From: Pocillopora damicornis
Lineage: Eukaryota
NCBI RefSeq assembly: GCF_003704095.1
Contig: NW_020845865.1
Coordinates: forward strand, 124,001-188,000
DNA length: 64,000 bases
Reading direction: 5' to 3'
Every line of letters starts with the position of its first letter. Position 1 is the stretch's first letter. The notes under the pieces were generated by a model. It saw nothing but the letters and a program-made list of their open reading frames with translations. It was not told where the DNA came from and made no database searches. The position numbers and the translations under genes were made by a program. Below are positions 2,685 through 63,300 of this stretch, piece after piece.

Positions 2685-3833
2685 TCAAAGTTGTTCATCT
2701 TTCACTTCGTGATCTCTCCTCGAATCGGTTTTAGGTTTGCTTAAGGTAATTGGAATGTATTTGCCTTCGTCCATTTGAGACACGAAAACATTACAGGCCT
2801 CTGTTTTACCAATGCTGGTTATTGTGTTTCTTCTGTAGCGACCAACTTCAGTGCTGTTGCTATCCTTTCTTTGCAGTGTAGAAAACTTCCTAGACAGTCT
2901 TGCCAAAATCTCCAAAAAAGCTCTTCTGAAATGCCGACTTCTCCAGCAATAAATCACAGGATTAGCAAAGGACGATGTAAACGTCAAAATTTTTACGAAA
3001 GCATTTAAAATACTCTGTTTACTTCTGAATGAATCTGAAAAACATTGCGGACAGGTCTTTAACAGGAAGTAATAAAGGCATGAGGGGAACCAAGTGGCCA
3101 CAAAGACTCCAATAACAATTAAAATTGTGGTGCTTGCTTTACGTTCGTTCGTTTGTCGCGGTCTCCGGGTTTCAGTATCTCCCAGGCTCTTTCTGTCACT
3201 CAATATCTTCTTTATGTGCGACCTGGCAGTGAGATACAAATAGCTATAGCAAGTTGTTATGATTACGAATGGCAATATAACGTTGGTTACAATGACCATA
3301 ATGCTCCACCAGCGTGTAGGTTCGTAATTACACTCCTTATTAGGAGAATCTGACTCCCATGGAACAAACGGTAGCAGTGATATTACTATCGCGTCAAACC
3401 AAGTGAGTAACAAGCCCGTGATAACTCGTTCGTGTGTGACAACGGTTGCATATCTCAGCGGCCACTTTACGGCGAGCAGGCGTTCAACGCTGATGACTGA
3501 AAGGCTCAGGATAGAGGCATATCCGGTGAGAAAATACGAAAACCGGAATACGTCGCATATGATGATATCGACAGACTCTGCCATGGAAAACTTTTTGAGG
3601 ATGTAACTGGGCATGGCAAGTATTCCTACTAAGAAGTCAGCAATCGCTAAACTGAACACAGACAGATATGTGACGCTGTGAAGTGCAGGCTTAATGAGGA
3701 TCGCTGTAAATACCAAGCTGTTTCCGAGCACAGTGCCAAGCGATAAAAACGAAAGAGTTACAACCACGGGTGTAACAGGCAATCTTTCATTGATATGCAT
3801 ATGGACCCCTGTAGACATACTGCTGTTATTCAT
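2685..3833 (-). CDS. Rhodopsin-like class A GPCR (orphan, aminergic-like scaffold), intronless CDS, 382 aa
   Basis: Seven hydrophobic segments with class A motifs: GN (TM1), LAIAD (TM2), C3.25 and ERL (TM3), W4.50, LPF (TM5), TWFP (TM6), NPVIY (TM7), helix-8 FRRAF. Minus-strand AATAAA at 2635-2640. Confidence 0.95.
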   Translation of the reverse strand: MNNSSMSTGVHMHINERLPVTPVVVTLSFLSLGTVLGNSLVFTAILIKPALHSVTYLSVFSLAIADFLVGILAMPSYILKKFSMAESVDIIICDVFRFSYFLTGYASILSLSVISVERLLAVKWPLRYATVVTHERVITGLLLTWFDAIVISLLPFVPWESDSPNKECNYEPTRWWSIMVIVTNVILPFVIITTCYSYLYLTARSHIKKILSDRKSLGDTETRRPRQTNERKASTTILIVIGVFVATWFPSCLYYFLLKTCPQCFSDSFRSKQSILNAFVKILTFTSSFANPVIYCWRSRHFRRAFLEILARLSRKFSTLQRKDSNSTEVGRYRRNTITSIGKTEACNVFVSQMDEGKYIPITLSKPKTDSRRDHEVKDEQL

Positions 3834-4594
3834 CTTGAGGTTATCTGCTGTGGTAGTAGATATATATCATTATATGAGATGATGTTTTCATCCATTTTAA
3901 CAGCTGTTTCGAAAGACTCTTTGATGTTTCAATTTTAAATGTAAATTCCTATTATATCTACCCTGAAGGCAATTATCTTTCAAATGGAACCCTTGAAAAA
4001 TGTTGACGAATATTTTACGCGCAAAATCTGAACTAAAATCCTCTAAGGAAATATAAAATCACAATTTGTTCATGCTACCAATATTTTCATGCTGTCAGCT
4101 TATGGATTGTGAAAAAAAATTCACGCGTTTACATAGTCAACCGATTCATGTAAATCTACTGCAAATGGTTGTTAGGGTCAAGCATGAAAGGCAACATGAA
4201 AATGAAAATGTGGTACAAATATTAAGTCCTATGGTTAAATGAGCTCAACAGACATCGATCATATTTCCTTTATATCACTATTTCGCTTTGGACTTAAAAA
4301 AAAAACACCCTGTGATATTCCAGTATCTCGCGAAAGGGAAATATAAATAAAATTCAAGCAGGTTTCTTCTCTAGTGTTAAGAAATAATCCAATAGCACCT
4401 GTAGATCTCCTTCTAGCTCTAAAAATTATATCTTGCCGATAAATTTCTTTCCTAAATACATTTCTACCTCTATGCTGGTCTTTTTGAGTATCGCCGTTCC
4501 GTTTCAACATCGATCCTAACAGTTGAGTGGTTTTTGAAAACAGAACATGTTTTAGGAAATAAAAATTTTCCATGAACAATTTTAAATCTAGATA

Positions 4595-18779: not shown

Positions 18780-19895
18780 TTACACACTACTTGATTTACT
18801 GTTTACTAGTAATTCTAGAGTTTCTTTGTTAATAACAACTTCTTCTGCCGTAGAACGTCGAGGCCTTGTCTGATCATTACTGTTCCGTCGTGAAATGCGA
18901 ATGTTAAAATAACTGGAAAATGAATTAGAAAAGCTGCGCTTCTTTCGGCGGCAAATTTTCAGAAATACGCTTCTAAACTCGCGACTTCTCCAGCAATAAA
19001 TTATGGGATTCAAAAAGGACGAAGTGAAAGTCAGAACCTTCACTAAAGCATTGACAAGACTCTGTTTGGCTTTGAATGCTTCAGAGAAGCATTGCGGACA
19101 GGTTTTCTGCAGGAAATAATAGAAACAGGATGGAAACCAGCACACCACAAAGACGCCAATCACAATCATGATGGTAATGTTAGCTCGGCGTTCTTTGTGA
19201 TTCTTGGCGGAATTTTTACTGTTGTGGGATAGCTGCCTACTGTTCTTTGACATTTTTTTGACATGGGATTGGGCTGTTAGATACATGAGACTGTAGCAAA
19301 TCACAATGACAAGAAATGGAGTAATTACATTGGATATGATGACCATAATGCTCCACCAGCGAGTCGGACTGTAGCTGCATTCCCTATACGGATTGTTTGG
19401 TTCCCATGGGAAGAAAGGAAGCGACGAAACCAGAAGGGCGTCCACCCATGCAAAGACCAGTGCCAGCACTACTCGACGACGTGAGACAATAGTTACGTGG
19501 TTCAGCGGATTTCTCACTGCGATAAGGCGCTCCACGCTGATGACTGATAAACTTAGAATGGAAGCGTAACCCGTCAGGAAATACGAAGAACGAAAAATAT
19601 CGCATACAATTGTCTGCGTTGGTTCATCCCATGTAAACTTTTTCAAGATGTAACTTGGCATGGCAACCAGGCCTGCTAAAGAGTCCGCGATCGCCAGGCT
19701 GAAAATTGACAAGTAGGTCACATGACGCAAGGCAGGATGATTGTAGATGGCAAAGCATATCACGCAGTTCCCGAGGACAGTGCTAAATGACAGAAACGCT
19801 AAAATTACGACCAGCGGTGTTCTTGGCACCTCAGTATAGCCATTTTCTTGTATGAGGTTAATAGGCGGTATGACTGTGCTGTTTGACATCTGCAT
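18780..19895 (-). CDS. Rhodopsin-like class A GPCR, paralog of 2685-3833, intronless CDS, 371 aa
   Basis: GN, LAIAD, ERL, CWFP and NPIIY motifs. Shares blocks with the first GPCR (AMPSYILKKF, SYFLTGYASILSLSVISVERL, PTRWWSIMVI, KTCPQCFS); 42/62 identical over TM1-TM2. Confidence 0.95.
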   Translation of the reverse strand: MQMSNSTVIPPINLIQENGYTEVPRTPLVVILAFLSFSTVLGNCVICFAIYNHPALRHVTYLSIFSLAIADSLAGLVAMPSYILKKFTWDEPTQTIVCDIFRSSYFLTGYASILSLSVISVERLIAVRNPLNHVTIVSRRRVVLALVFAWVDALLVSSLPFFPWEPNNPYRECSYSPTRWWSIMVIISNVITPFLVIVICYSLMYLTAQSHVKKMSKNSRQLSHNSKNSAKNHKERRANITIMIVIGVFVVCWFPSCFYYFLQKTCPQCFSEAFKAKQSLVNALVKVLTFTSSFLNPIIYCWRSREFRSVFLKICRRKKRSFSNSFSSYFNIRISRRNSNDQTRPRRSTAEEVVINKETLELLVNSKSSSV

Positions 19896-20324
19896 GCTGC
19901 TGACGAAATGAAAAGAGGGATTTAAAGAGGTTCATGAACTCATTAGAACCGTTCAAGATGCACCAATGCACTCGATTAATGTAAGAGAATAATATTCCTC
20001 AATTGATACTTAAAACTGATATAGATTCAGGAAATTGGATTTGAGTCAAAGAAGCCGAAATCTTAACCTCTACTTAGTTAAGGTGTAAAATGAATCTAGA
20101 CTAATTTCAATGTTAGTTCTCACCTCGGTAACAAATCCCTTTAACTTTGGAATTTACCTAGCTCAAGTCGAGGACTGAAAAGTGGAGTGGAGGACTAAAA
20201 GTACATATATGCGTCACTCCGTGGGCAGTAATATTTGCGATATCATAGTTTAAATTTAAATTTCAGCTCGTGTAACTTGCTTTTGGTTCAAAATTTACGA
20301 AGGTCCTTTGTAATGTTTCAAATT

Positions 20325-37270: not shown

Positions 37271-37411
37271 TCCGGTGGTGACTGCTGACTAATTGAAAAC
37301 AAAACAAAACGGAGAAATAGTGCACAAAATGAGCCCAAAAACATGCCTCAGGAAAATTATTAGTATGAGTTCATTAACGAATACAATAGCAATAATTAGA
37401 TCAATACTTGC

Positions 37412-38105
37412 CTGAGAAAACGCTTTTTTTCCTTTGTGTTCGATCAATTCTAAATCTTTCAGTGTCTATCCTCTTTTTCTGCCGTATTGCTACGATTAGA
37501 ACCCGCAGGCTCATGATAAGCAGTAGGAAAAATGGAAGCACAATGTTTAGTAGCAAAGCCAAAATACTGAGCCATAATGGAGTTCCCGCCCACGCGACTC
37601 CGCAGTCTAAACTTTGAGTAGAAAACTCAATATTAGCCAAAGACGAAACCAGCACAACGAAAATGACTCCTTGAGTCCAACAATACACAATCATAATGGC
37701 GATTGTTCTAGTTGTCACGCGACTTATGTATCTTAAAGGGTCGCTCACCGCAATATGTCTCTCAATCGCTAACATGACAAGTGTTATAGTTGAGCAGATG
37801 TAGAACGGATACGATAATATTCCGCCAATTTTGCAGAGAAATCCATTGTCCACAATAATGTTGAGATCCAAGACGGTAGCCAAGTGAAATGGCATCAGTA
37901 TGGAAGCCGTGAGGAAGTCGCTCACCGCTAGATTTAAGATCAAATAGCTGTTCACTGCTCGCCGAAGACGTTTGAATCGGAGAATTGCGATTATGACAAG
38001 TAAATTTCCACACACTCCAAAAACAATAATTATCCCAAGCGTCGTTGCTAGAATAGATTTTTCTGTCGTTGTCCACCAGTGCATAGGTGCACGTGTTGTT
38101 TCCAT
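37412..38105 (-). CDS. Class A GPCR no. 3, coding exon 1 (TM1-TM5 and part of ICL3)
   Basis: GN, LAVSD, C3.25, ERH, W4.50, LPF. The ORF stops after TM5; CAG|gcaagt donor after 231 codons + 1 nt. Confidence 0.9.
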
Positions 38106-41100
38106 GATAAAACAACACCAGTTTGGCGTCTGAAAGCTGTTCTCGATTCAAGATGGTGAATAGAGTTCTCAGAGACTCATGATAGTTTGACAATTGAAAT
38201 CCGCTTTCACCCACTGTAACAATAAAGTAATAGGTAGGTAAACATAAGGTTATATTTTTATCTCTGATATCTTAAGAATGATATCAATTTTCCATATCGA
38301 CTTTACTGCGTTGACCCCACATATCAGTGACAAATCATTGAATAATTTGAAATTCACAATCTCGCATGTTTATGCTCATGAGAAAATTTTCATCCCCTGC
38401 TATTTAATAAAAGCAGCCGGGAATAAAGTGGGCCTTTATACACACTATCTTTCAAAAAATCATGATAAATGATGAAATCTCTTCATTGACTGGCCGTGAC
38501 TTAATCGACTTTGAATTAACGGAACTGATTCATGTCAACCGAGGGTAGAGTTCTTTAACGAAGCTCAAAAAGGTACTAGATGCCATTGTCTTGTTGATTC
38601 ATGCATTATGTGAATAATACCAATGGTCAAAACATCACGTATAATTTCGGCAGCTAGAGAAATTGTTAAAGAAAAGATTGAAGTTGTTATTATCTTAATT
38701 CGTTTACCACGGCCAAGTAGTTTACATTGTTACCGAGACTATAACCTGATTTAAAACATTGAATGATTTAGGCATTTGACTTTCGATGCTTTCTTCGACA
38801 CACTTTTAGCACTTAATAGAAATGTCAGCTTGGCTGTATTCTCTAGCATCTCACTGAATGTAGTCGGCTTTAGGCGACATTATTCATGCTACTTCCGCTA
38901 GAGAAATAAGTATATAGTTACGAAACTGAAAGCTTCTAATTACTTCATGCCATCGAATTGAATATTCCTAAGATTTAGCAATACCTTTCGCGTGAAAAAG
39001 GAAACACCAAGAAAAATTACAAAATAAAAAACAACACTTATGCTCGTTTACCGTGAAATCCCGAAAATTTTATTAAAGCTTAATTCAGAGGCAATTGATC
39101 CTTGCTGAACGTGTAGATATTCAAGTCTAGTTCTAAGATTTAATCAAAAGAACTTTGGGCTCGTTGAAACAACGTGAATCACTTACCTACCAAAATTTAG
39201 TTTAGCGACATGTTATGATTCCCATGGGAAATCTAGTTGAATTCAACATTTATATCCATAGTTTCGGCCCAAAGATAAAGAATTGTAACTCAAAATCAAT
39301 TTCGCCTAATAAACAAAGTCGAAAGGATTGTTATTGATCCCTAAGGGGCACATGGCGCGTGACATGGGACATGGCTTTTCACTCTTAATCTAAAAATAAA
39401 ACGCATCAAGAAAATGACGAAATAACTTCTAAAGGTGAAACTCTTGAGAATAAGCTAGAATTCCGATCTACTTTTAAGCACTACTTTATTCTGCCTCTTT
39501 CTCTTCTTCTTAGCTAACGATTAACTCTAATTTTTTACGAATTCGTGTGTGGCATGACGTAATTAACACGACGGGGAGACAATGATTCATTTTAATGACA
39601 CTGCGCCTTTGGGCCTTTAATAATGTAATTCAAGTCAAATTCCTGTCTTAGCATGATGTGTGCATTGAAGTGTCGCCTGGTCTGGGGTTTTACACAGACA
39701 TAGCAAATTGTTTATCTCTGACCATCACGTACGACTAAGTTGAGACTGCTATTTTGCAGCTGTTAAAGACATTTGTCTTTATTCACATAGTTTCAATTCA
39801 CATCGTTTTATCAATTTCTCATTGATTTTTGAAACTAAAACACTGGAATCTGAATAACAAAAAAAACGCGGGGAAAATATTTTTTTGGTCGTACTTTCAA
39901 AGTCTTCCAATTGTAAGTAACAGCGAGGATATCAATAAGAAACTAAATCAATTCAGGAATTAATAAAAAAGAATGGAATTACCTAACAGTAAGCGAGATA
40001 AAGGAAGAAGAAAGTAAAGTTGAAGGAGGGAAAATTCCCTGAGATTGACACATTCACCTTTGAAGAGCTTCCAGAATACTCCCTTTGGATATAAAAATAG
40101 CAAGAATAGAAATAACAGCTTTTTGTTCTATATTTATCTCCACTTCCTTCATAATAAAGAAAAGAATATTGCAGACATGCCTGGCTCGAGGGATGTTGCT
40201 TCACCAATTCACAAGTTGACGTTTTCACGTGGCGCCATAGATATCAAAATGTAAAGTTTTATTGTCTATCAAGCATTTGCCGTCAACAGATAGACGATAT
40301 CTCTGAAATAAACTTTTTGGAAAGTGTTTTGGATGATGGGATTTTTGTTCTCCGTGTTGAAAATAGTGCTATTTCAAATTTGTTTTATTGCACATAACTT
40401 TTGGAAACTTGTAGTTTTGCAGTCGGGCCATACACTATTTCCTGTTTTTGAAGACATTAATCAAGGGTAATTTAAGTAAACAATACACCAGCAGGACCAA
40501 AAATTTAACCTGAAGTTTGCTTATTACCTACTTATTATGCCTTAACATAAATTTTGATCCGCCCCACAGAAGAGCGCATGAACAATAATGCTTAACTTTC
40601 TAAATATCCTTATAAAGTTTTTGATGCACCCTGTACTCTGATTTTTGGAAATGTTAAGTGGTCGTTACCATGACGCAGAAGCACATTTCTATCATTTTTA
40701 ATGCGGCGTTGTAAAGTTTCACCACAGATCAGACAAAAAAAAAACAAAAACAGGCTATTCCATTTGCCCCTAATAACGACACGCCGCATCAGGGCCGGAA
40801 AAGGACAAAGAGGTTAAAGCGAAAAATAGTGTAACAGGAAGCGACAGACTACTCTAGAATAAGGGAGATAACCTGACTGTGTTTAATTTATTCCGACCCT
40901 ATTCTTGTCAATCATCCAGCCGCCTTCTGTGTACTTTACAACAGTTTTTGGCTCAATGGAGGCTTTTTCCTTTGTTATATCGAATATAGTTTTTTACAGA
41001 CCAGTTGTTCTTACAAGTAACGGACAAAAAAAACAGTTTTTAATTTCACTTTGCGGTACTGACAACAAAAAATTTAAAAAATCGCAATCCATTCCTACTG

Positions 41101-50829: not shown

Positions 50830-51347
50830 AGTGCTCTTTAATCATTATTTTAACGATACCGAACTATACTTTTAACCGAAAGTGCTTCTAGTGAAGTCGA
50901 TCTCTCCTGCATTATCATGACGCAAGCTAATAAAAACATTCTGAATGTGGTAATATTGTTAGTTAAGCGAAGCTGTATTGATCGTTGTGGTTCCTTCGTT
51001 ATTGTGTCTGTGGCTTTTACAATTATCGATATATAGAACCTTTAGTGCCCTCGTATACTTTTGAATAATGAGAGAATTTGAGCCATATTTGCCCGCAGGA
51101 CGCTAACAAGACTTAGAACACCAGGATATAGTGAAAAATAGAGCAGAGACCTTTTTTAAAGGTTCGAGTCTTCTCTAAGGAAGTTTCTTGAAAAAGACTT
51201 TGGGACCTCCTACACACAGAGAATTGTGATTATTTTTTTAGTTTTCAAGTTCGTCGACTCTGTGCTTTTCCACTGTACTATTCCGATACGCCATCAAACA
51301 AATAACGCAAAGAATTATTTGCCATCTTCAGAACTTAAATCCATTGG

Positions 51348-52427
51348 ATGAAGTTTAGGATGTCAGAAAATTTCAGTAACAATTGCTGCAATGTATCTAC
51401 CGTGGAAGATTTTTCCTTGGTCCCTTCAACCTGGCCTTTGGGAGTGGTAGTTTTAACAAGCATTCTCATGATTGTAGTGAACGTTGTAACTCTGGTTGGT
51501 AACTCTTTTATTATCGTGGCAATGGCGAACATCAATTCACTGAAAAGTATGGCGAACAATCAAGCCGTCATTTCGTTAGCGGTCGCTGATCTTTTGGTGG
51601 GTTTACTAGTTATGCCCTGTGCAATCGACGGTTTGTTATCAGGAAAATGGCGATGTGGAGCATTATGGGGAAAACTAAACGCGTTTGGTAACTTTTCTTT
51701 CTGTATTTCTTCTATTATGCACCTAACATTACTGTCGTTCGACCGATATATTGCAGTTACTCGTCCCTTAGCTTACCGTTCGATATTTACCAAAACAAGA
51801 GCTCAATATGGTTGTCTTTTATTGTGGATATATTCAACTCTATGGGCCCTGCCGCCACTTTTCGGTGTAAGTTCTTACGAATGTTTTATTCCTTACATCG
51901 GAAAATGTCTTGAGAAAGATTGGCTCCAGAGCAAAGTTGCGGTCGTTTTCACCGTTGCAGTCGTTTGTGGAACATACGGGGCTGCCGTTTTAGTCATGTG
52001 CTTTGTTTACCTGAAGATTTTTTTGACAATTTTCAAACAGTCGAAGAAAATTTCCGTGACAATGGAACAGGTGCGAAGTAACTTTGATTTAACAACAAGA
52101 ACACGGGCCTCAACTAGGAAGGGAGCCTTAACAGTGCTTATTGTTATTGGAATCTATATGGTTTGTTGGTCACCTTTTTGTGTTCTTCTGTTTGTGCAAA
52201 TGGCCCGTGGAAAATCCACAGGAGGACCAACAGCAGATCTAATAACAATGTTTATCGGCTTTGCAAACAGCGCTTGTAATCCAATCATATATAGCATTCG
52301 ATATAGAGCGTTTCGCCAAACTGTAAAGCGTATATTTTTAAGGAATTATGACTGTTTACAGTATTTCTTCAGCGGACCTGAGCCAATGAATAACAGCACG
52401 CAGGCAATAACGACCAATAAGATTTAA
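51348..52427 (+). CDS. Class A GPCR no. 4 (aminergic/opsin-like scaffold, orphan), intronless CDS, 359 aa; start may be the second Met at 51360
   Basis: GN, LAVAD, DRY, W4.50 with PPLFG, CWSPF, NPIIY, FRQ. N-glycosylation sequons in the N-terminus. Confidence 0.95.
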   Translation: MKFRMSENFSNNCCNVSTVEDFSLVPSTWPLGVVVLTSILMIVVNVVTLVGNSFIIVAMANINSLKSMANNQAVISLAVADLLVGLLVMPCAIDGLLSGKWRCGALWGKLNAFGNFSFCISSIMHLTLLSFDRYIAVTRPLAYRSIFTKTRAQYGCLLLWIYSTLWALPPLFGVSSYECFIPYIGKCLEKDWLQSKVAVVFTVAVVCGTYGAAVLVMCFVYLKIFLTIFKQSKKISVTMEQVRSNFDLTTRTRASTRKGALTVLIVIGIYMVCWSPFCVLLFVQMARGKSTGGPTADLITMFIGFANSACNPIIYSIRYRAFRQTVKRIFLRNYDCLQYFFSGPEPMNNSTQAITTNKI

Positions 52428-54252: not shown

Positions 54253-54561
54253 CTAATACATACAATCCTCCTCCAAGTTTGTCGCTAACTGATCGTTCGC
54301 ATTTGGCTCCGACCAAAAGTTCTCACCCGATGAGCTAGTAATATGCAGCGTCATCTTAGCCATCACGTGAGTGATAACAATAGAGACCAGACTCCCATCG
54401 GCTCTTCCCAGATAAAGAGTGACTTCATACGAAGGATACTCGCAATTCCCGTTTTGGCTTTCTCTGAGATTGGGAAGAAATTTTCCTTGATAATCAAATA
54501 CTTTAGTGCGTTCCTCGCGAATGAGCTTTTTAGCAGCCTTTCTTCCGTTCGAGTAGAAAAC
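54253..54561 (-). CDS. IRF: IRF exon 9: second half of IAD and C-terminal tail; full CDS 1785 nt = 594 aa
   Basis: Acceptor cttcttttag|GTT, reads VFYSNGRKAAKKLIREERTKVFDYQGKFLPNL...YPSYEVTLYLG...LVSIVITHVMAKMTLHITSSSGENFWSEPNANDQLATNLEEDCMY*. This frame is absent from the ORF track. Confidence 0.9.
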   Translation of the reverse strand, partial: VFYSNGRKAAKKLIREERTKVFDYQGKFLPNLRESQNGNCEYPSYEVTLYLGRADGSLVSIVITHVMAKMTLHITSSSGENFWSEPNANDQLATNLEEDCMY

Positions 54562-54947
54562 CTAAAAGAAGAAGAAGAGATATTAGTAAACGCCATGAAC
54601 TGATCAAAAACAGAAGACATTTTTATCACGCTTACTATAAGCACTAATATAATAAAGATCAAAGTGATACTTCAGTGAACCTCAGTCGCGGATATGCTAT
54701 ACAGAATCTAATTAGTATATACAGTGCTTGCACTAAAGGCCAGTGATCCTATAATTCCAAGAAGCAGAATGGAGCCAACATTCTAACAAGGGTCCTCTTT
54801 AGTTGTGATGATAAGATGTATGCTCTCCACAGACTCCTAAGGCCGTGCTAACGCCACGAAATTTGTTTATCGAATCCCCACAATACTCATTCTTTTGCTT
54901 CGGGTATCCACAAGTAAAAACGAACAAAACTGAACAAAACTGCTTAC

Positions 54948-55255
54948 CCTTGCGAGGCATAGACGAGTGACAATTATGTCATTGGACTCGTTGATCTCCA
55001 ATATAATACCGCGTTTAATGAAATCCATCACTTTCATAACTTCCCTGGAGTTGTTGTTCACAGCTGGCGGTAGCTCGATCTGTCTAGCAGTAGGAGGTCC
55101 GAACAGCTGACACAGTAAACCCAACTCGAGCTTTCGGGGTTCTACCATGTGACATCCGTGGGATATCCTGATTAACCGTTCACTTTCTGTCTGCTTCGTG
55201 TCGGTGGATAATACTTCATAGTTACCATAGAATACCCGGATGCGCATGGCGGATT
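54948..55255 (-). CDS. IRF: IRF exon 8: first half of the IRF association domain (IAD, SMAD/FHA-like)
   Basis: Acceptor gtatattcag|AA, reads ESAMRIRVFYGNYEV...LFGP...QIELP...MDFIKRGIILE...IIVTRLCLAR (IAD-type FGP/LP/RG/RLC motifs), donor AGG|gtaagc. Confidence 0.9.
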
Positions 55256-55448
55256 CTGAATATACAAATCGAACAATGATTTGAAATTACCAACAGGCAT
55301 ATACCCTTGTAAATTGCTTATAAATGCATTTTAACTAAACTGAGACAGACCTTTTTCCAGATCGCATTGAGATACCGCGATCATTTTGTGCATATTCTCG
55401 AGTTCCGCTGAGTAATATACTCATCTTGTAGTGAGAGACTTCACTTAC

Positions 55449-55527
55449 CACAGCTGTCTCCTGCTTGTTTTCCAGGCCTTGCGAACCCTGACCCTGGATT
55501 CTCATTTGATTGATGGATGTTTGTGAC
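55449..55527 (-). CDS. IRF: IRF exon 7 (79 nt)
   Basis: Acceptor cattttccag|, reads VTNIHQSNENPGSGFARPGKQAGDSC, donor G|gtaagt; phase 0 to 1, which exon 8 requires. Confidence 0.78.
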
Positions 55528-55633
55528 CTGGAAAATGTGACGTAAGACAGATGTGAACTTTTTTGTACTATAAATAAATATCTGTGATGCTCACTCTCAT
55601 CTTCAAAAATCTTCATTTTGACAATTTACATAC

Positions 55634-55674
55634 CGTTCGGCCCATGCTTTCATCCATTTCCAAACCAGTAGCCT
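55634..55674 (-). CDS. IRF: IRF exon 6 (41-nt microexon)
   Basis: Acceptor tttttttgcag|AG, reads EATGLEMDESMGRT, donor ACG|gtatgt; phase 1 to 0. Confidence 0.7.
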
Positions 55675-56346
55675 CTGCAAAAAAAATTGTGTAGATGATC
55701 AACTTCAATTTTTTGTGCAGTGCAAGTTCACAGTTCTACTTCATCTACACGTCTGGGTGGGCTTATTATTTCTTAAATAATATAACAATAGGAGAAGTTG
55801 AACTCCAGGATAAATGATAAATTATTAATTATCAAATGCATTTCGTTTTAGCAGGCAGACCAACGAAATGGTTCTTAGTCCTCTGTTCCTTTTTCAAATT
55901 AAAATCAGTTGAATTGTTTGGTTTTGGAAAGGAAGTCCGGAAAGCCCAAGTGAAAGATGCTGAGACACTCCACCCACAGTTGGTACCATGGTCGGAAAAG
56001 ACCCCAGTCCACAGCAATATAAAAGGGGGAGCGGGGGAGTGGGGAGAAACTCATCTCATTATCACCACTGCATCATTTACGCGACGCTTTCCAATGTAAC
56101 GGTTAATATGTGTTGGTATTAGCTGTTTCAGGAGCCGAAGCATTTTCTCAAAAGTATCTTATTATTTTTGCGGTAATACCACTGGCGAAGCTTACAAGCA
56201 GGCGCTCCTTATAAGAGCTGCAGTATTCGACTTTTTCCGCTGCGGGAAGATTTGAAACGAGTCGAAGAGAGGTTTGCTAGGGGTCTGGCACTAAAAATGC
56301 CTCATTACCAGAGCTACACTGATACGGGCGAGGAAACGTTTGTGTC

Positions 56347-56403
56347 GAGGCACTGATAACGAGGGCATACTCGTGCTGAGGCACTGGTAACGAGGGCATA
56401 CTC
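56347..56403 (+). repeat. Recent tandem duplication, period 31 bp, in IRF intron 5
   Basis: gaggcactg(a/g)taacgagggcatactc occurs twice, 25/26 identical. Confidence 0.9.
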
Positions 56404-56453
56404 ACAAGCTACTTCAGGCCTTTTACTTGTGGTATTTTTTATAATAATCTTAC

Positions 56454-56511
56454 CTATTAATCCATTATCCATGTTGAAGTGAGTGCTGACAGAAGATGAT
56501 CCATTAGAGGA
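56454..56511 (-). CDS. IRF: IRF exon 5 (58 nt)
   Basis: Acceptor ttttgtttctag|, reads SSNGSSSVSTHFNMDNGLI, donor G|gtaaga; phase 0 to 1. Confidence 0.72.
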
Positions 56512-56728
56512 CTAGAAACAAAAGTGTTAACATCAGGAACGACAGGTAAGATTGAGGAAACAAGTTAGTGCCTCCAATAAATGCAAAATACGTTCACTCT
56601 GTCACTTAGTCTGCTAAAATGAATACAGACCGAAAAAAAGTAGTTACACCAAATGTACCCTTCTAAGAAATCCACAGTTTTAATTCATGTGCCCTTTTAA
56701 AGAGTTCTTCAAAACACACTGTTCATAC

Positions 56729-57073
56729 CTCGTTCGGTGAGAATGCACCTTGACGCCAAAGTTTCATAAGAGCTGGGTTGGTTGCCATGAGATGCTGTAG
56801 AAATGCTTGTCCGCTTTCGCTTAATCCATTGAACATTTGGCCATTGGCTACGAGAGTGGCCTCTAAAATATCCTTCCTGACGTTTGTGAAATCCAAACTC
56901 TCCAATCTAGGAGGGAGTTGCGTAGGTCTGATAAAGTTATCACTTGCAGAATCCCCACCAAAAAGAAGATGGCTGTTGGAATAAGAGAACTGATATGGAT
57001 TTGGTAGATTTCCACATATTGGTTCGTCGGTGAGCATGGGTTCGTAGCCTTGGCTCGGATATGGCGGAATTGT
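56729..57073 (-). CDS. IRF: IRF exon 4 (linker)
   Basis: Acceptor cattttacag|ACA, reads TIPPYPSQGYEPMLTD...FSPNE, donor GAG|gtatga; 345 nt, phase 0-0. Confidence 0.82.
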
Positions 57074-57533
57074 CTGTAAAATGCATTAAATGAGGTCAAA
57101 TATCTGTTGCGTTCTTCACATGCTAAAAAGCATGATAATCGTAAGTTTCGGGGCGGGCGAGGAAAACTGGTTCGAGAGAGAGTAACTTCCCAAAGGAAAA
57201 ATAAATAATCACTGCGTAAGGAAGTTGCTTTTGGGGCTGTTCTCGTATCACCGAACCTTTTTTTTTTTTTTTTCAGAAGTGCAAAGGCAGAAGAGAGAAA
57301 GTAAAAAGCTGTCTAAAACACACGTGAATTATCGTTAAGAGGGTCTTAATACTCAACACTTTGAAAGGTTTAAGCTTGTAATAAACCCTCTTTCAAAAAC
57401 AGTCCAAAAACACGCCGTAACGATGAACGCTGTCACTCTTAATTTAGAGCAGGGAAAGGAGCGGGAGTCTCCCCACTTTTACTCTGTTTAATACCTGAGT
57501 CCTTAGAAAATCAAACCGAACATTAATCCTCAC

Positions 57534-57710
57534 CGGAGTGATACTGTCTAAATCGTCCTCAGGTGAGCTGTCACTGCTATTGTGTGGAGAGTCTTGAAGC
57601 CGGCCACAATTCAGCGGTCCAGACAAAATTGGATAGTTGTTAAAGAACACATTTTCCGCTTTTGCTGACGGAGCTGTACTACGTATCACTGAGTCGCCCT
57701 TTACACGGCA
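57534..57710 (-). CDS. IRF: IRF exon 3 (Ser/Pro/acidic linker)
   Basis: Acceptor tctctctag|TGC, reads CRVKGDSVIRST...DSITP, donor CCG|gtgagg; phase 0-0. In-frame alternative donor at 57495. Confidence 0.78.
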
Positions 57711-57779
57711 CTAGAGAGATCAAACAAATCGAAAAACTTGGTCTTTTTCACCACCTCACGCCCTTAATTAATTAACGAA

Positions 57780-58060
57780 ATGAATTTCATCTTTCGTTTC
57801 TATTTTCGACGACCGAGCTAAAAATTTACCATCGTTCTCACTCTTATTATTCGCACAACAGTTTAATTGCGACATCGCTGATCTTCCCACCATGCAAGAA
57901 ACTCATCACATATGTACCCAATGGAGGCCTAGCGAGTTATCAGTGCTCAGAGGCATGCAGAGCATCAGGCTGCGAAAACCAAATGTCTGAGGTTTTATTC
58001 TTTGTGAGAGACCCAGACTTTTTCTTTTCCCGCCTTAGACAAAATGAATTACATATTTCT
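57780..58060 (+). mobile_element. Degenerate SINE-related repeat in IRF intron 2
   Basis: catctttc...accgagctaaaaatttaccatc and ggcctagcgagt...agagcatc...gaggttttattc resemble parts of the 58465 element. Confidence 0.45.
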
Positions 58061-58093
58061 TAAAAGAAAAAATAAAGCATGTTAAACCTTTAC

Positions 58094-58215
58094 CGGAGAA
58101 ACCACATCCGAACGAGGGACAAAACGATGCACTGTCCTTACCATTGGGCGTTTGCCATTTTGATTTTCCTCCGACCTCAGTGAACCGAAGTTTTGTGGTT
58201 TTTGCGAGCAATCAT
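58094..58215 (-). CDS. IRF: IRF exon 2 (linker)
   Basis: Acceptor gtgttcttcag|AT (phase 1), reads DDCSQKPQNF...VVSP, donor CCG|gtaaag (phase 0). Confidence 0.78.
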
Positions 58216-58464
58216 CTGAAGAACACAAGTAGAAATAATCACTGTTAAAAAAAAAACTCTTGGAGTAAATCATAGCCTTGCATGGGGATACCTAACTGGT
58301 AGATGATAACTGAGCTTGTGTTTTACGTGAAAGAAATGCGTGATCATATCCTTCGACCTTTCCAACTTCCTCCCAAAACACCTTGGACAATCTTCCAACA
58401 AATCCTTTTAGCAGTATGCACATTCTTGGCAGGAGGTTTGTCACCATGGACCTAACTAAACAAA

Positions 58465-58648
58465 CTAGCCTACCACGAGTCTCCTCAAGCGCAGTGGTAG
58501 GGCATCCGAAGTACTAATCGAAAGATCGTAGGTTTGACTCCCACTGGGAGCACTCGAGTTTTTTTTCCCAGCATGCCTGTGCCATTCACTGAATAACATC
58601 ATCTTTCACTTAAATCACCACACTTGCGAGTTATCATCATCATTTATA
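58465..58648 (+). mobile_element. tRNA-derived SINE in IRF intron 1
   Basis: A-box-like agcgcagtggtag (58488), B-box-like ggtttgactcc (58531), stem ctccca/tgggag; second copy at 33525. Confidence 0.72.
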
Positions 58649-60320
58649 TGATTGCGCAAAGAGATTTATGATTCCTATTCAAGATCGATAGTAAGAAAGA
58701 TACTTTAAGCAACATTTTTATTTAATTTATTGATATTTGAGGATCTTGAATATTCAGTTCTCTCGGCAAATTTTTTTCTCAGTAGGTCTTTCTTTGGGGA
58801 GTGAACTCGTGGAGGATTCTAAACTTAATTCACCTAAATTATGCAATACCTTTTTGGCAGAAAAATTAACTACATGCTTTTGAGTTTCTGTGAGGTATGT
58901 CGTCCAACTATCGAACCGCCCGGCCCCTTGCAGACTTCCCTTTTAGATTTCATGAATAGTTGGCACAGAAATGGGTGAGCACAATATTTTGTTTGTTTTC
59001 CTATTCAAATTACACAATAGTGATACCCGATGAAACTGATAACGACCTCACTTAATTACAACTTCCTTCCACCCACGTGGTAGTCTTAGTCTGGCTGGTT
59101 ACCTAAGGAAGTCTTATCGTCTGAAAACAATAAAAAAGTTGAACCCACGATTTTATTTCCGGGGCAATGAAGTCTGAAAATTTAGCAAAGCAAAGTTTAA
59201 ATTAAAAAAGAATCGAACCATTTGTGTGTGTACAGGAAAAAAACGCTACCTAAGATTTTAATTGCATATTAGCTATAAAGGTATAAGTTGCCGATGAATG
59301 TTTTTTTAAGGCCTCTGGCACAGTCATTGTTTGATAGTAATCGCCAGCCAGCTTGACAACATCAGGGAGTGTCCGGGTGCGGTACATGATTTGTCCCTTG
59401 CAGTGAACTTTCGATTTACCCTGAATTACAAAATTAAGATGTAGTTTTTCTATAAAAAGAACAGACAAGAAGAGAACGAGAAAACGGAAAAAAGAAAATC
59501 TCTCTGACTAAATATTTGATCGCAGAGGATTTTGGGCCTAAATTCAGTTAACACTGTGGTTTTCGTTCGAGCCGGATATTTGTCTTCTACTAAGTTATGT
59601 TGACAACGTCATTTTTAACTGATATTTTCATTATCTCTTTGGGAAGGTTCGCTTTAGAATTAATGGCTCGGACGCGATTTTGATGTCTTAACAACGATAT
59701 ATTCCAAATGATCTTATCTATCTCTTTGCCTTCTATACTAATTAGAATGTGATTCCATCTGAATGTTCTTCCAAAGCACTGTGACAAATGGATGGCATGG
59801 AATCAAAGATCTCATTCGAAGCATGAAAAAAAAACTTTAGTACTGTCTTGCGTCAACATGAAGAAACAGTTTCGAAAGCGATAAGTCCGTCCGCCTAAAC
59901 GTTCAAAATAAAATCATCCATGCGTCTTAGAAATTCATAGAAGGTTCGAACTTTGTATATTTTCAAATTCTTTTAGGCAAGTCTGACTTTGCTCCAGTTT
60001 CGTTTCAGTGGTTCAAACGTGGTTCGAAACAATCGATATTTCAGGGCAAAGAGAATACAAAGTCACGGAAACTCAGTACTCAAAATTATGAAAAAGTAAA
60101 ATTTCTCGTTATTACCATGTCGAAAATCGACAACATTAAGCGATAAGCAGACCTTCGATGGCGGCCAAAACGGTGTTTTTCTTGAAGTTTGTCTTTGTTT
60201 ACCGTAGCTAATTAACAAGGCCCCAAACACCAGAATTAACTTGTTTTTAAATTATTGTTTTAAAAAAAATAGGGAAATTTTCTTTAGCTGTTATGATGAT
60301 AACTCGCTCGCAACTAATCC

Positions 60321-60330
60321 GGGAATCCCC
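60321..60330. promoter_or_regulatory. kappaB site GGGAATCCCC (GGGGATTCCC on the gene strand) in IRF intron 1
   Basis: Exact match to GGGRNWYYCC. Confidence 0.5.
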
Positions 60331-61142
60331 AAATTTTATAATTCGTAGGCAATCCTTCCAGCGAAGTTCGTTTATTGCATTTTACACTCCATTTGATGGA
60401 AAAGCAAGTTATTCCTGTACTTATGGCTCGATTTTAACTAAATACCCCATGGCTGATATCAATTTTTTTTCGTTTTCTAGCACTTAAACACCGCGACAAG
60501 ATGACGTAAACTTCCTTAAAGATTGATTGACAATGTATTGTGCACGTTGATAAAAACTGTTTTGTTTGGTAAATCCTTGGTACTTCGATATCAAAATTTC
60601 GGCGAATAAATTTGACTGATAAACCTAACCTAATATTTCTAGTGATCGACACAAAACTACTTCAAAAGTCTACCCTCATTTTTTGTTCTCAATTTTTTCT
60701 TTAATTGTCCATCGTTGTTTCCCATGATTAGAATATAACACTCAGTATAAAAAATTTGAATGTCAGAGTGCCGTTCAGGCAAGATTAATAGCCCTCGTTG
60801 CTCGTAAGAAAAAAAGATCACTGACCAGGCGCTGATTAAACACTAAGCAAGTTTTTTGGCTTCTTGTTGAGTAAAATTAAGGAAAGCGGCTGGTTTCTGT
60901 TTTTTTTACTACAGCTTGGGTACAGGTCACACTAGTTTGCACACAGGCTAAAGAGTTTAAATGTCGGAAGATATCAGTGCTGTATTTGAACGGGCTACAA
61001 TTGTTATTCGCCGGTGTACATAACCTTGATAGTCATGGGTTATTTCTGCACTGACCGCGTGATTCCGAAAAACCTTCGTGAGCAAATATGATTTAGGATT
61101 ACGTTTTTCCTAAACTCGACTCGCGCCGTTCTTTTTCCTTAC

Positions 61143-61488
61143 CTTTATCCTTGAAACGGAAAACTCGGTAAGGTTCCTTTTCGTCCAAACTATGGGGAAC
61201 TTTTACTTCTTCGACGTCCGGCATTTTGTGCAAGGCGCATCGGAACCTTGTTTTCCACGTCGAGGGATCGGCAGATTCACCGGGGCGATATTTACCAGTA
61301 TGCTCGGCCCAAAGCTTAAATAACATGGCATCTTTCTCCACAACAAAATCAGGTTTGCCAGCGTGTTTCCACGAGACTCGAAATTCTTTCTTTTCTTTAT
61401 TACGCCAACACAGTCCCGGCACTTTTCCACTGTTTATTTTATCCTCTAACCAGGGTCTCAGCCGCTGTCGCTCCGTGGACGATGTCAT
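61143..61488 (-). CDS. IRF: Interferon regulatory factor, exon 1: IRF DNA-binding domain
   Basis: Five-tryptophan repeat (RLRPW, GLCW, SWKHA, FKLWA, TWKTRFRCAL); donor AAA G|gtaagg, phase 1. Confidence 0.97.
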
Positions 61489-61607
61489 GTCGCCGCCTTC
61501 AGTATCAGCACCGCTTTTCTTGAATCTACTTGCGAGGGAAATTCAAGTTAAATCAGTTCTGGATTTACAACAGCACTATCTTCGGGAATAGGCAAAGGGA
61601 TGAGTTC

Positions 61608-61617
61608 TTTCGGTTTC
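61608..61617 (-). promoter_or_regulatory. ISRE/IRF-E motif GAAACCGAAA, 120 nt upstream of the IRF ATG
   Basis: + strand tttcggtttc matches GAAANNGAAA. Function is inferred. Confidence 0.55.
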
Positions 61618-62094
61618 TGACATCCATGCGTTAAACGTAAAAGTGTTCGCCAGCCAAACCCAATTAGTAATGTTGCCTTTTTTAACCCTAGAGCTTCTGT
61701 TATTGAAGGGTTTTTCCCGGTAAATTAATTCCATATGCTCTTATTGGTCAACCCACTCAAGCGTGAGACTTCCGTTCCCTCAAATAAACACGTGTTGCGT
61801 CTATGCTAATATCGTACCAGTTCATTTTACCAAAAAAACAAACCCCTCGGGCATGAAGGCGGAAATGGTCTTAGAGAATATATCAGTTAAATTTGTACAG
61901 CTATGATACTAAATAGAGACACAGTAAAGAAAGGCTGAATAGAAACATAAGAAGGAAAACGTACTTTCAAAATTTTGAATTCTGTGTGTCACGCAACACA
62001 TACTTCCTCGATCACCCAATGTGGAAATATGGAAATTGTGTTTCATCAAAACCTGTCTAATTACATAGTGCATACATCTTAAAAATTATAAGTT

Positions 62095-62103
62095 TTCCCG
62101 GAA
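62095..62103. promoter_or_regulatory. GAS (STAT) site TTCCCGGAA upstream of IRF
   Basis: Exact TTCC(C/G)GGAA consensus about 610 nt upstream of the ATG. Confidence 0.5.
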
Positions 62104-63252: not shown

Positions 63253-63300
63253 NNNNNNNNNNNNNNNNNNNNNNNNNNNNNNNNNNNNNNNNNNNNNNNN
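63253..63300. other. Assembly gap (48 N) between a G-run and a C-run inside a MITE-like repeat
   Basis: The N run is seen directly. Confidence 0.99.

Follow-up and report, generated by a model that had tools for sequence, protein, structure and literature searches.

Conserved kB-type and ISRE-type sites at an IRF4-type gene of the coral Pocillopora damicornis

We have analyzed a 64,000-nucleotide stretch of the Pocillopora damicornis genome (NCBI RefSeq assembly GCF_003704095.1, contig NW_020845865.1, positions 124,001 to 188,000; hereafter the window), which carries on its minus strand an expressed and spliced coral interferon regulatory factor (IRF) gene of the IRF4 type. Two candidate NF-kB (kB) sites, one in the promoter and one in intron 1, and an interferon-stimulated response element (ISRE) close to the start of the gene are conserved among coral orthologs, and these kB-type and IRF-type sites likely wire the gene into an interferon-free immune response. 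An earlier note on this DNA had proposed a self-amplifying antiviral loop with IRF, STAT, and NF-kB legs. As judged from sequence conservation, two of the three legs (NF-kB and IRF) are supported, and the interpretation is upheld in part.

The IRF gene and conservation of its regulatory sites

The gene has its ATG at 61488, and the exons that follow exon 1 encode the IRF association domain (IAD). Its identity as an IRF, as had been claimed, is established by Pfam matches of its product to PF00605 (E 1e-37, 128.9 bits) and to PF10401, the IAD (E 2e-9), and all five tryptophans of the DNA-binding domain (DBD) lie in exon 1. A 578-aa collection protein, P0001, aligns exon by exon to 54256-61488 in nine matching pieces. 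Expression and splicing are seen in RNA evidence from four of six listed runs, all four of which remove intron 1 (58216-61142), and the kB site and 1-nt-spaced ISRE attributed to this intron do fall within it. A stretch that we take to be of the kind named pLxIS is not conserved among the orthologs. The nearest named relatives are from stony corals, and a cluster of DBDs at 98% identity contains a Stylophora protein. A profile built from 12 orthologs has IRF4 structures as its top matches, 3.5 bits above IRF2, and also matches the IADs of IRF5 and IRF4; the tree of the gene contained one vertebrate row only, and a place beside the vertebrate IRF4 group is tentative. Among the residues listed as contacting DNA in IRFs (R82, C83, N86, and S/K87; PMC7819612), R82 and C83 are kept and position 87 has the Lys that is also found in IRF4, while Asn86 is replaced by His; human IRF7 likewise departs from Asn at this position, with Arg. 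The coral genome itself has four IRF DBD matches, and exons for an NF-kB Rel homology domain are also present. The supplement of PMC8713801 lists five Nematostella IRFs, of which nvIRF5 (LOC5506284) alone matches the coral protein by eye in this DBD helix and in the WKHAGKP loop; on this shared DBD sequence it is the Nematostella ortholog.

The seven motif strings described previously were found where they had been reported, each exactly once in the window, confirming that the observation is real. The ISRE, GGGAAAAACCC, GGGGATTCCC, and TGAAACGAAACT are read on the minus (gene) strand. The window has a GC content of 36.9% and contains the exact gamma-activated sequence (GAS) form TTCCNGGAA once and the loose ISRE GAAANNGAAA 19 times, many more than the few occurrences per 64 kb that had been expected. 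The earlier note took clustering to be the signal. An ISRE, a GAS, and a kB site came together within 2.1 kb in 16 of 200 sequences made by dinucleotide shuffling of the window, in 2 of 2000 made by shuffling the region alone, and at 0/60 Ras/Forkhead control loci. As the three motif classes were picked after the sites were seen, the clustering by itself is modest, suggestive evidence and is not decisive. Genome-wide there are 27,764 TTCYNRGAA GAS sites, one per 8.4 kb and thus with a chance of about 22% in 2.1 kb, and 3406 strict ISREs, one per 69 kb. None of 16 substitutions across four DNA runs falls inside the seven motifs, although the numbers are too small to matter.

A single metagenome scan yielded 17 loci, comprising nine close orthologs with upstream DNA (L005-L013), two distant IRFs, five members of another paralog group, and one fragment that lacks upstream DNA and was excluded. 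The nine orthologs represent seven distinct sequences from two coral lineages other than the window's own. In a tree with four of the nine, the L005-L011 lineage joins the window, Stylophora, and Oculina (96/92), and L012, and with it L013, falls outside this robust group, beside Porites and Acropora; all are within a 100/100 coral clade. Robust and complex corals parted some hundreds of millions of years ago. At fourfold-degenerate sites of exon 1 the fraction identical to the window is 0.38-0.44 for seven loci and 0.25-0.30 for the other two; unselected DNA is therefore largely randomised, with synonymous sites near saturation.

The promoter kB site proposed at 61708 (GGGAAAAACCC) is nonetheless kept in all nine orthologs, as is the ISRE at 61608, in which both GAAA halves are fixed and the spacer alone has changed. 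The intronic kB site at 60321 (GGGGATTCCC) is present in all five loci that reach it. Comparison of 10-mers upstream of the gene (seven loci, the duplicates L006 and L009 being dropped) shows that 7 of 841 are common to all seven distinct sequences and that five of these seven are from the kB block; in the intron, 3 of 1381 are common to all four loci compared, two of the three being the kB site. Conservation of this kind at saturated neutral divergence rules out chance as the source of the two kB sites and of the proximal ISRE. The intronic ISRE fares less well, being intact in two of five loci with its 3' half altered in the other three. Neither the kB site at 61536 nor the GAS-like overlap TTACCGGGAA is kept in any of the nine ortholog loci, and the position of the GAS at 62095 is likewise kept in none. 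The GAS is real but appears to be either lineage-specific or a chance occurrence.

RNA contigs have 5' ends at 61592, 61628, 61662, and 61741, and although contigs cannot fix the transcript start, three of the four main contigs reach beyond the ISRE, placing it at or just within the RNA 5' end. Array data for anemone, not coral, NF-kB proteins (two Nematostella alleles and Aiptasia, in that order) are given in the supplement of PMC5700166, the probes being 10-mers in fixed flanks. The z-scores are 13.7/14.6/14.7 for GGGAATCCCC, which represents the intronic kB site and ranks among the top binders, above those of the canonical GGGAATTCCC (12.7/11.4/12.0); for the promoter site they are 7.3/7.9/5.7 (GGGAAAAACC) and 5.9/4.0/4.4 (GGAAAAACCC), and for the 61536 site GGGAAATTCA 6.3/5.9/4.5.

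The two distant IRFs, L014 and L015 (71% and 63% DBD identity), have anemone IRFs as their nearest named proteins (66-69%). L014 has an ETS site followed by GGGGAAAACCC, and L015 has CCAAT, GGGGAAACCCC, TTAAAA, and an ISRE, in both cases in the order seen in the window; neither arrangement arose in 20,000 shuffles, with relaxed patterns that were set after inspection. An ETS-kB compound pattern was considered as the mark of a promoter family and rejected, as its one genome-wide match is this locus and the reversed control gives three.

GAS sites, STAT, and the IRF1-type paralog

With TTACCGGGAA and the GAS at 62095 each at 0/9, a conserved GAS of the IRF1 type is not found here and the proposed STAT leg fails, by position, at this gene. 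The analogy drawn with vertebrate IRF1 fits another paralog instead, an IRF1-type gene (L002; G000:C580, ~80,185-80,240) with a CCAAT box at -215, a cAMP response element (CRE) at -198, and a GAS (TTCTCGGAA, -189) side by side with a kB site (GGGGACTCCCC, -174). The array z-scores of GGGGACTCCCC are 8.9/7.0/10.9 (PMC5700166), and LOC5517492, the anemone counterpart of this paralog, has a log2 fold change of 8.5 in PMC8713801. Searches of the coral genome with PF02864 and PF02865 gave no scored STAT match, which is uninformative for a many-exon gene and does not imply absence.

We also compared upstream regions of immune-type genes and controls, using first-exon matches only (14/27 GBP, 11/11 CARD, 1/5 viperin, 24/30 Ras, and 28/30 Forkhead; tandem paralogs inflate the count). 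TTCYNRGAA is present in 11 of 26 immune-type regions versus 5 of 52 controls (p 0.0013, the paralogs not being independent), and the strict ISRE in 4/26 versus 0/52 (p 0.010, with six patterns tested). Loose ISRE forms are not enriched upstream of the immune-type genes (12/26 versus 18/52 and 4/26 versus 4/52).

Several loci have arrangements of their own. L132 (G000:C3758:10013-11512, minus) has nine GAS sites and one kB site in 1.5 kb upstream of a viperin-like gene and is a strong candidate for a STAT target; its GAS sites belong to a locally repeated unit, in which a CRE-like word precedes two GAS spaced by about 23 nt, and the repeats are not independent. In the CARD-gene paralogs L061 and L062 (G000:C1291), a pair of GAS spaced by 22 nt, of which the second overlaps a kB site, precedes the domain by 145-185 nt. 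In a third group of IRF paralogs (L004, L016-L020), an ISRE precedes the DBD by 85-175 nt, both in the coral genome and in 5/5 metagenome loci; in L018 the usual ISRE is altered and a near-site downstream has become a complete one, a pattern suggestive of turnover.

Other features of the window

Coordinates are collected below. The leader inverted repeat overlaps the kB site reported at 61536, the GGG of which is not conserved. The repeat may be a DNA site or an RNA hairpin; as a conserved RNA structure it has no support from covariation, with 0/11 pairs covarying among eight sequences, although the nearly invariant arms give this comparison little power.

Features of the IRF locus, listed by position (a dot marks features without an assigned strand)
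Feature	Position	Strand	Remarks
IRF gene, coding span	54253..61488	-	578-aa protein; N-terminal IRF DBD and C-terminal IAD, IRF4-supergroup type (Pfam)
Intron 1, 2927 nt, GT-AG	58216..61142	-	Joint in 4/4 RNA runs
Three conserved TTCGAA-centred words	59870..60030	.	60021-60030, 59943-59951, 59870-59877; flank intronic ISRE
Intronic 1-nt-spaced ISRE	59996..60007	-	Intact 2/5; others keep 5' half TTGAAAC, 3' half altered
Intronic kB GGGGATTCCC(G)	60320..60330	-	5/5 loci reaching it (robust clade only)
Exon 1, coding part	61143..61488	-	Entire DBD; five Trp; helix 3 WKTRFRCALHK
Leader inverted repeat	61519..61548	-	Arms 61539-61548 and 61519-61530, both invariant 7/7; middle variable
ISRE GAAACCGAAAGA (-129)	61605..61617	-	Orthologs GAAAGCGAAAGA at -145 to -148, 9/9
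Conserved CGCATGG	61624..61630	-	Slightly 5' of ISRE; ortholog comparison
TATA-like GTTAAA(A/T)	61680..61686	-	Aligned in 8/8 rows; presumed role
Invariant 14-nt block with kB-like GGGAAAAACCC (-230 from ATG)	61707..61720	-	Kept 9/9
CCAAT box	61743..61747	-	Kept 8/9; not in earlier note
ETS-type site CGGAAGT	61768..61774	-	Kept 9/9; not in earlier note
E-box CACGTG	61789..61794	.	Partly conserved, 8-mer in 5/7 loci
GAS TTCCCGGAA (-615)	62095..62103	.	Position kept 0/9

The TTCGAA word recurs near the ISREs of other IRF genes. As a general immune-promoter word it was rejected, being present in 2/26 immune-type regions versus 6/52 controls. Intron 1 also contains a dispersed repeat at ~58460-58620 with partial matches to many unrelated RNA contigs, which by eye looks tRNA-derived and similar to a short interspersed element. 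Elsewhere in the window are ordinary single-exon open reading frames resembling G-protein-coupled receptors at 2685-3866, 18780-19931, 37401-38147, and 51339-52427, the last confirmed as 7tm_1. A 48-N assembly gap at 63253-63300 falls within a G/C run and is 1.2 kb farther out than the GAS.

Interpretation and relation to known systems

The sites, the order in which they lie, and the extent to which they are conserved are observed directly; from them we infer binding, its sign, and the order of action as follows, with a probability of roughly 0.55. ETS and NF-Y factors would set the basal level through the ETS and CCAAT sites, and NF-kB, at both the promoter and the intronic kB sites, together with an IRF at the ISRE, would increase transcription in an interferon-free immune response. 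The main reader of the ISRE would be the IRF1-type paralog, and the GAS and kB sites in the promoter of that paralog would create a feed-forward cascade, with STAT acting at the tier above. Self-binding of the coral IRF protein at its own ISRE is possible and is the least supported step. A wider version of the scheme, which we regard as tentative and rather improbable, is a two-tier interferon-free cascade, arranged as in vertebrates, in which STAT and NF-kB would drive the IRF1-type gene through GAS and kB sites, that IRF and NF-kB would then drive the IRF4/7-type gene through the kB-ISRE arrangement with self-feedback following, and the wiring would predate both interferon and the cnidarian-bilaterian split.

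The anemone ortholog nvIRF5, not the coral gene itself, has a log2 fold change of 6.2 (~75-fold) after 2'3'-cGAMP in polyps and embryos (PMC8713801). Several observations weigh against the preferred reading. In the supplement of PMC8713801, nvIRF5 is in five induction sheets and in no NF-kB, STAT, or STING knockdown sheet (10/10 hits), and the IRF1-type ortholog LOC5517492 is also missing from the knockdown sheets (6/6 hits). Knockdown of each nvIRF by 40-60% gave no change, STAT knockdown was likewise without effect, and Nematostella NF-kB is needed for antibacterial and not for antiviral genes (PMC8713801). These knockdown data are the chief argument against a simple loop. Their weight is reduced in that the knockdown was partial, redundancy is possible, and the sites may be absent from the nvIRF5 promoter. 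On the arrays, binding of the promoter kB site is moderate (z 5.7-7.9), near the values of the non-conserved 61536 site (4.5-6.3; PMC5700166). To these can be added the His in place of the base-contacting Asn86 in the coral protein, the lack of a proximal ISRE at L014, and the GAS and kB pair of the IRF1-type paralog, which is known from this genome alone. There are, moreover, only two independent lineage comparisons, L005-L011 being 92-100% identical to one another, and the intron-site comparison is limited to five loci of the robust clade, with L012, L013, and two more stopping short of the sites. As to induction in corals, the Stylophora ortholog LOC111339715 has no entry in four supplementary files of PMC13319465, whose ortholog tables S21-S22, outside those files, may bear on it; no mention of RNA-seq was found in the preprint PMC9980059. 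An 'IRF8' described as Nematostella-specific in PMC13319465 is probably nvIRF4 rather than the ortholog of this gene, and was used neither way.

The original proposal could be rescued if STAT, NF-kB, and this IRF form a self-amplifying loop in which the GAS moves between lineages by turnover, which we consider unlikely. A TTCYNRGAA is indeed found within 700 nt of the ATG in six of nine orthologs, one lineage having it at -400 to -447 and the second at -56/-57, with a chance of about 8% per lineage, and the enrichment of GAS upstream of immune-type genes (11/26 versus 5/52) is in its favor. The GAS position is however conserved in none of the nine, three of the seven close loci have no GAS at all in 1 kb, there is no sign here of self-binding or a positive direction, and nvIRF5 is missing from the STAT knockdown sheet (PMC8713801). 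An equally doubtful proposition is that the ISRE is a brake, limiting NF-kB-driven output through a repressive IRF, either the product of this gene or an IRF2-like paralog, or else through a repressor of the Blimp-1/PRDM1 type. IRF2, IRF4, and IRF8 are able to repress at ISREs, and the ortholog form GAAAGCGAAAG presumably resembles the PRDM1 motif, whereas the CC spacer of the window's ISRE would, we assume, suit IRF4/8-type sites better than PRDM1. That three of four RNA contigs put the ISRE at the edge of the transcribed leader or a little within it points weakly to a brake; the IRF knockdowns produced no fall in induction, as a brake would allow, but the text on them gives no measurable change in either direction (PMC8713801).

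Slightly less probable again is that the conserved block is a basal promoter of ETS, NF-Y, TATA-like, and leader elements, in which the kB-like and ISRE-like words serve other factors or the RNA and induction comes from elsewhere. The negative knockdown data (PMC8713801) would agree with this, and non-immune words (the inverted repeat, CGCATGG, and the TTCGAA words) are equally conserved. It does not readily account for the intronic kB site, which is 1.2 kb away from the promoter, in DNA that can hardly be aligned, and ranks among the top NF-kB binders on the arrays, nor for an ISRE that varies only where an ISRE tolerates variation, nor for the proximal ISRE that another paralog group (L016-L020) also has in 5/5 loci. 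A chance motif cluster in AT-rich DNA, suggested by the 16 of 200 window shuffles and the 19 loose ISREs, does explain the 61536 site and perhaps the GAS as well; as an explanation of the whole it is very improbable given conservation at saturated neutral divergence.

The arrangement in which NF-kB and IRF would act at the conserved sites is like that of the vertebrate IRF7 promoter, where an ISRE/IRFE is combined with RelA input and one route is independent of interferon, in that an IAD-bearing IRF gene has an ISRE near its start and a kB input, known here from sequence alone. Both the ISRE (9/9) and the kB sites (9/9 and 5/5, with the anemone NF-kB array data) are conserved, and IRF3 and IRF7 bind the vertebrate IRF7 ISRE without interferon signalling (PMC10449649). 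Unlike IRF7, the coral protein is IRF4-like in its DBD, with His at the Asn86 position, and in likening the promoter elements we do not imply homology to the vertebrate ones. With the vertebrate IRF1 promoter, which has a single GAS instead of an ISRE (PMC7819612) and NF-kB input, the gene shares kB sites and the GAS string; here, however, it is the ISRE that is conserved and not the GAS, and the G000:C580 paralog fits the IRF1 layout better.

STAT, IRF, NF-kB, and ETS motifs are reported among poly(I:C)-induced Nematostella genes (PMC8476169), and Nematostella TRAF3 is a validated kB-site target (PMC10329013). These are set-level scans or concern another gene, as opposed to the gene-level conservation seen here. 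The oyster reportedly has an IRF interferon-like axis, a second invertebrate comparison beside the shrimp IRF-Vago axis. In shrimp, an invertebrate IRF acts on promoters downstream of STING (bioRxiv 2022.12.18.520954); both animals differ in being bilaterian and in that the target is a secreted cytokine gene and not an IRF gene itself. Gene-level conservation of a coral IRF promoter was not found in the literature searched, which missed most subscription papers. The locus is, by its pattern of conservation, a selected regulatory module resembling the known IRF7-type kind, motif-class enrichment in anemone antiviral promoters having already been published.

Anemones and corals induce genes of the interferon-stimulated type without interferon, and IRF and STAT knockdowns have been uninformative on the factors responsible (PMC8713801). 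The findings separate a likely STAT-responsive IRF from a likely IRF-responsive one, and this short promoter with its selected kB site and ISRE provides an exact reporter and binding target for asking whether ISREs are recognized by cnidarian IRFs and whether the effect is activation or repression.

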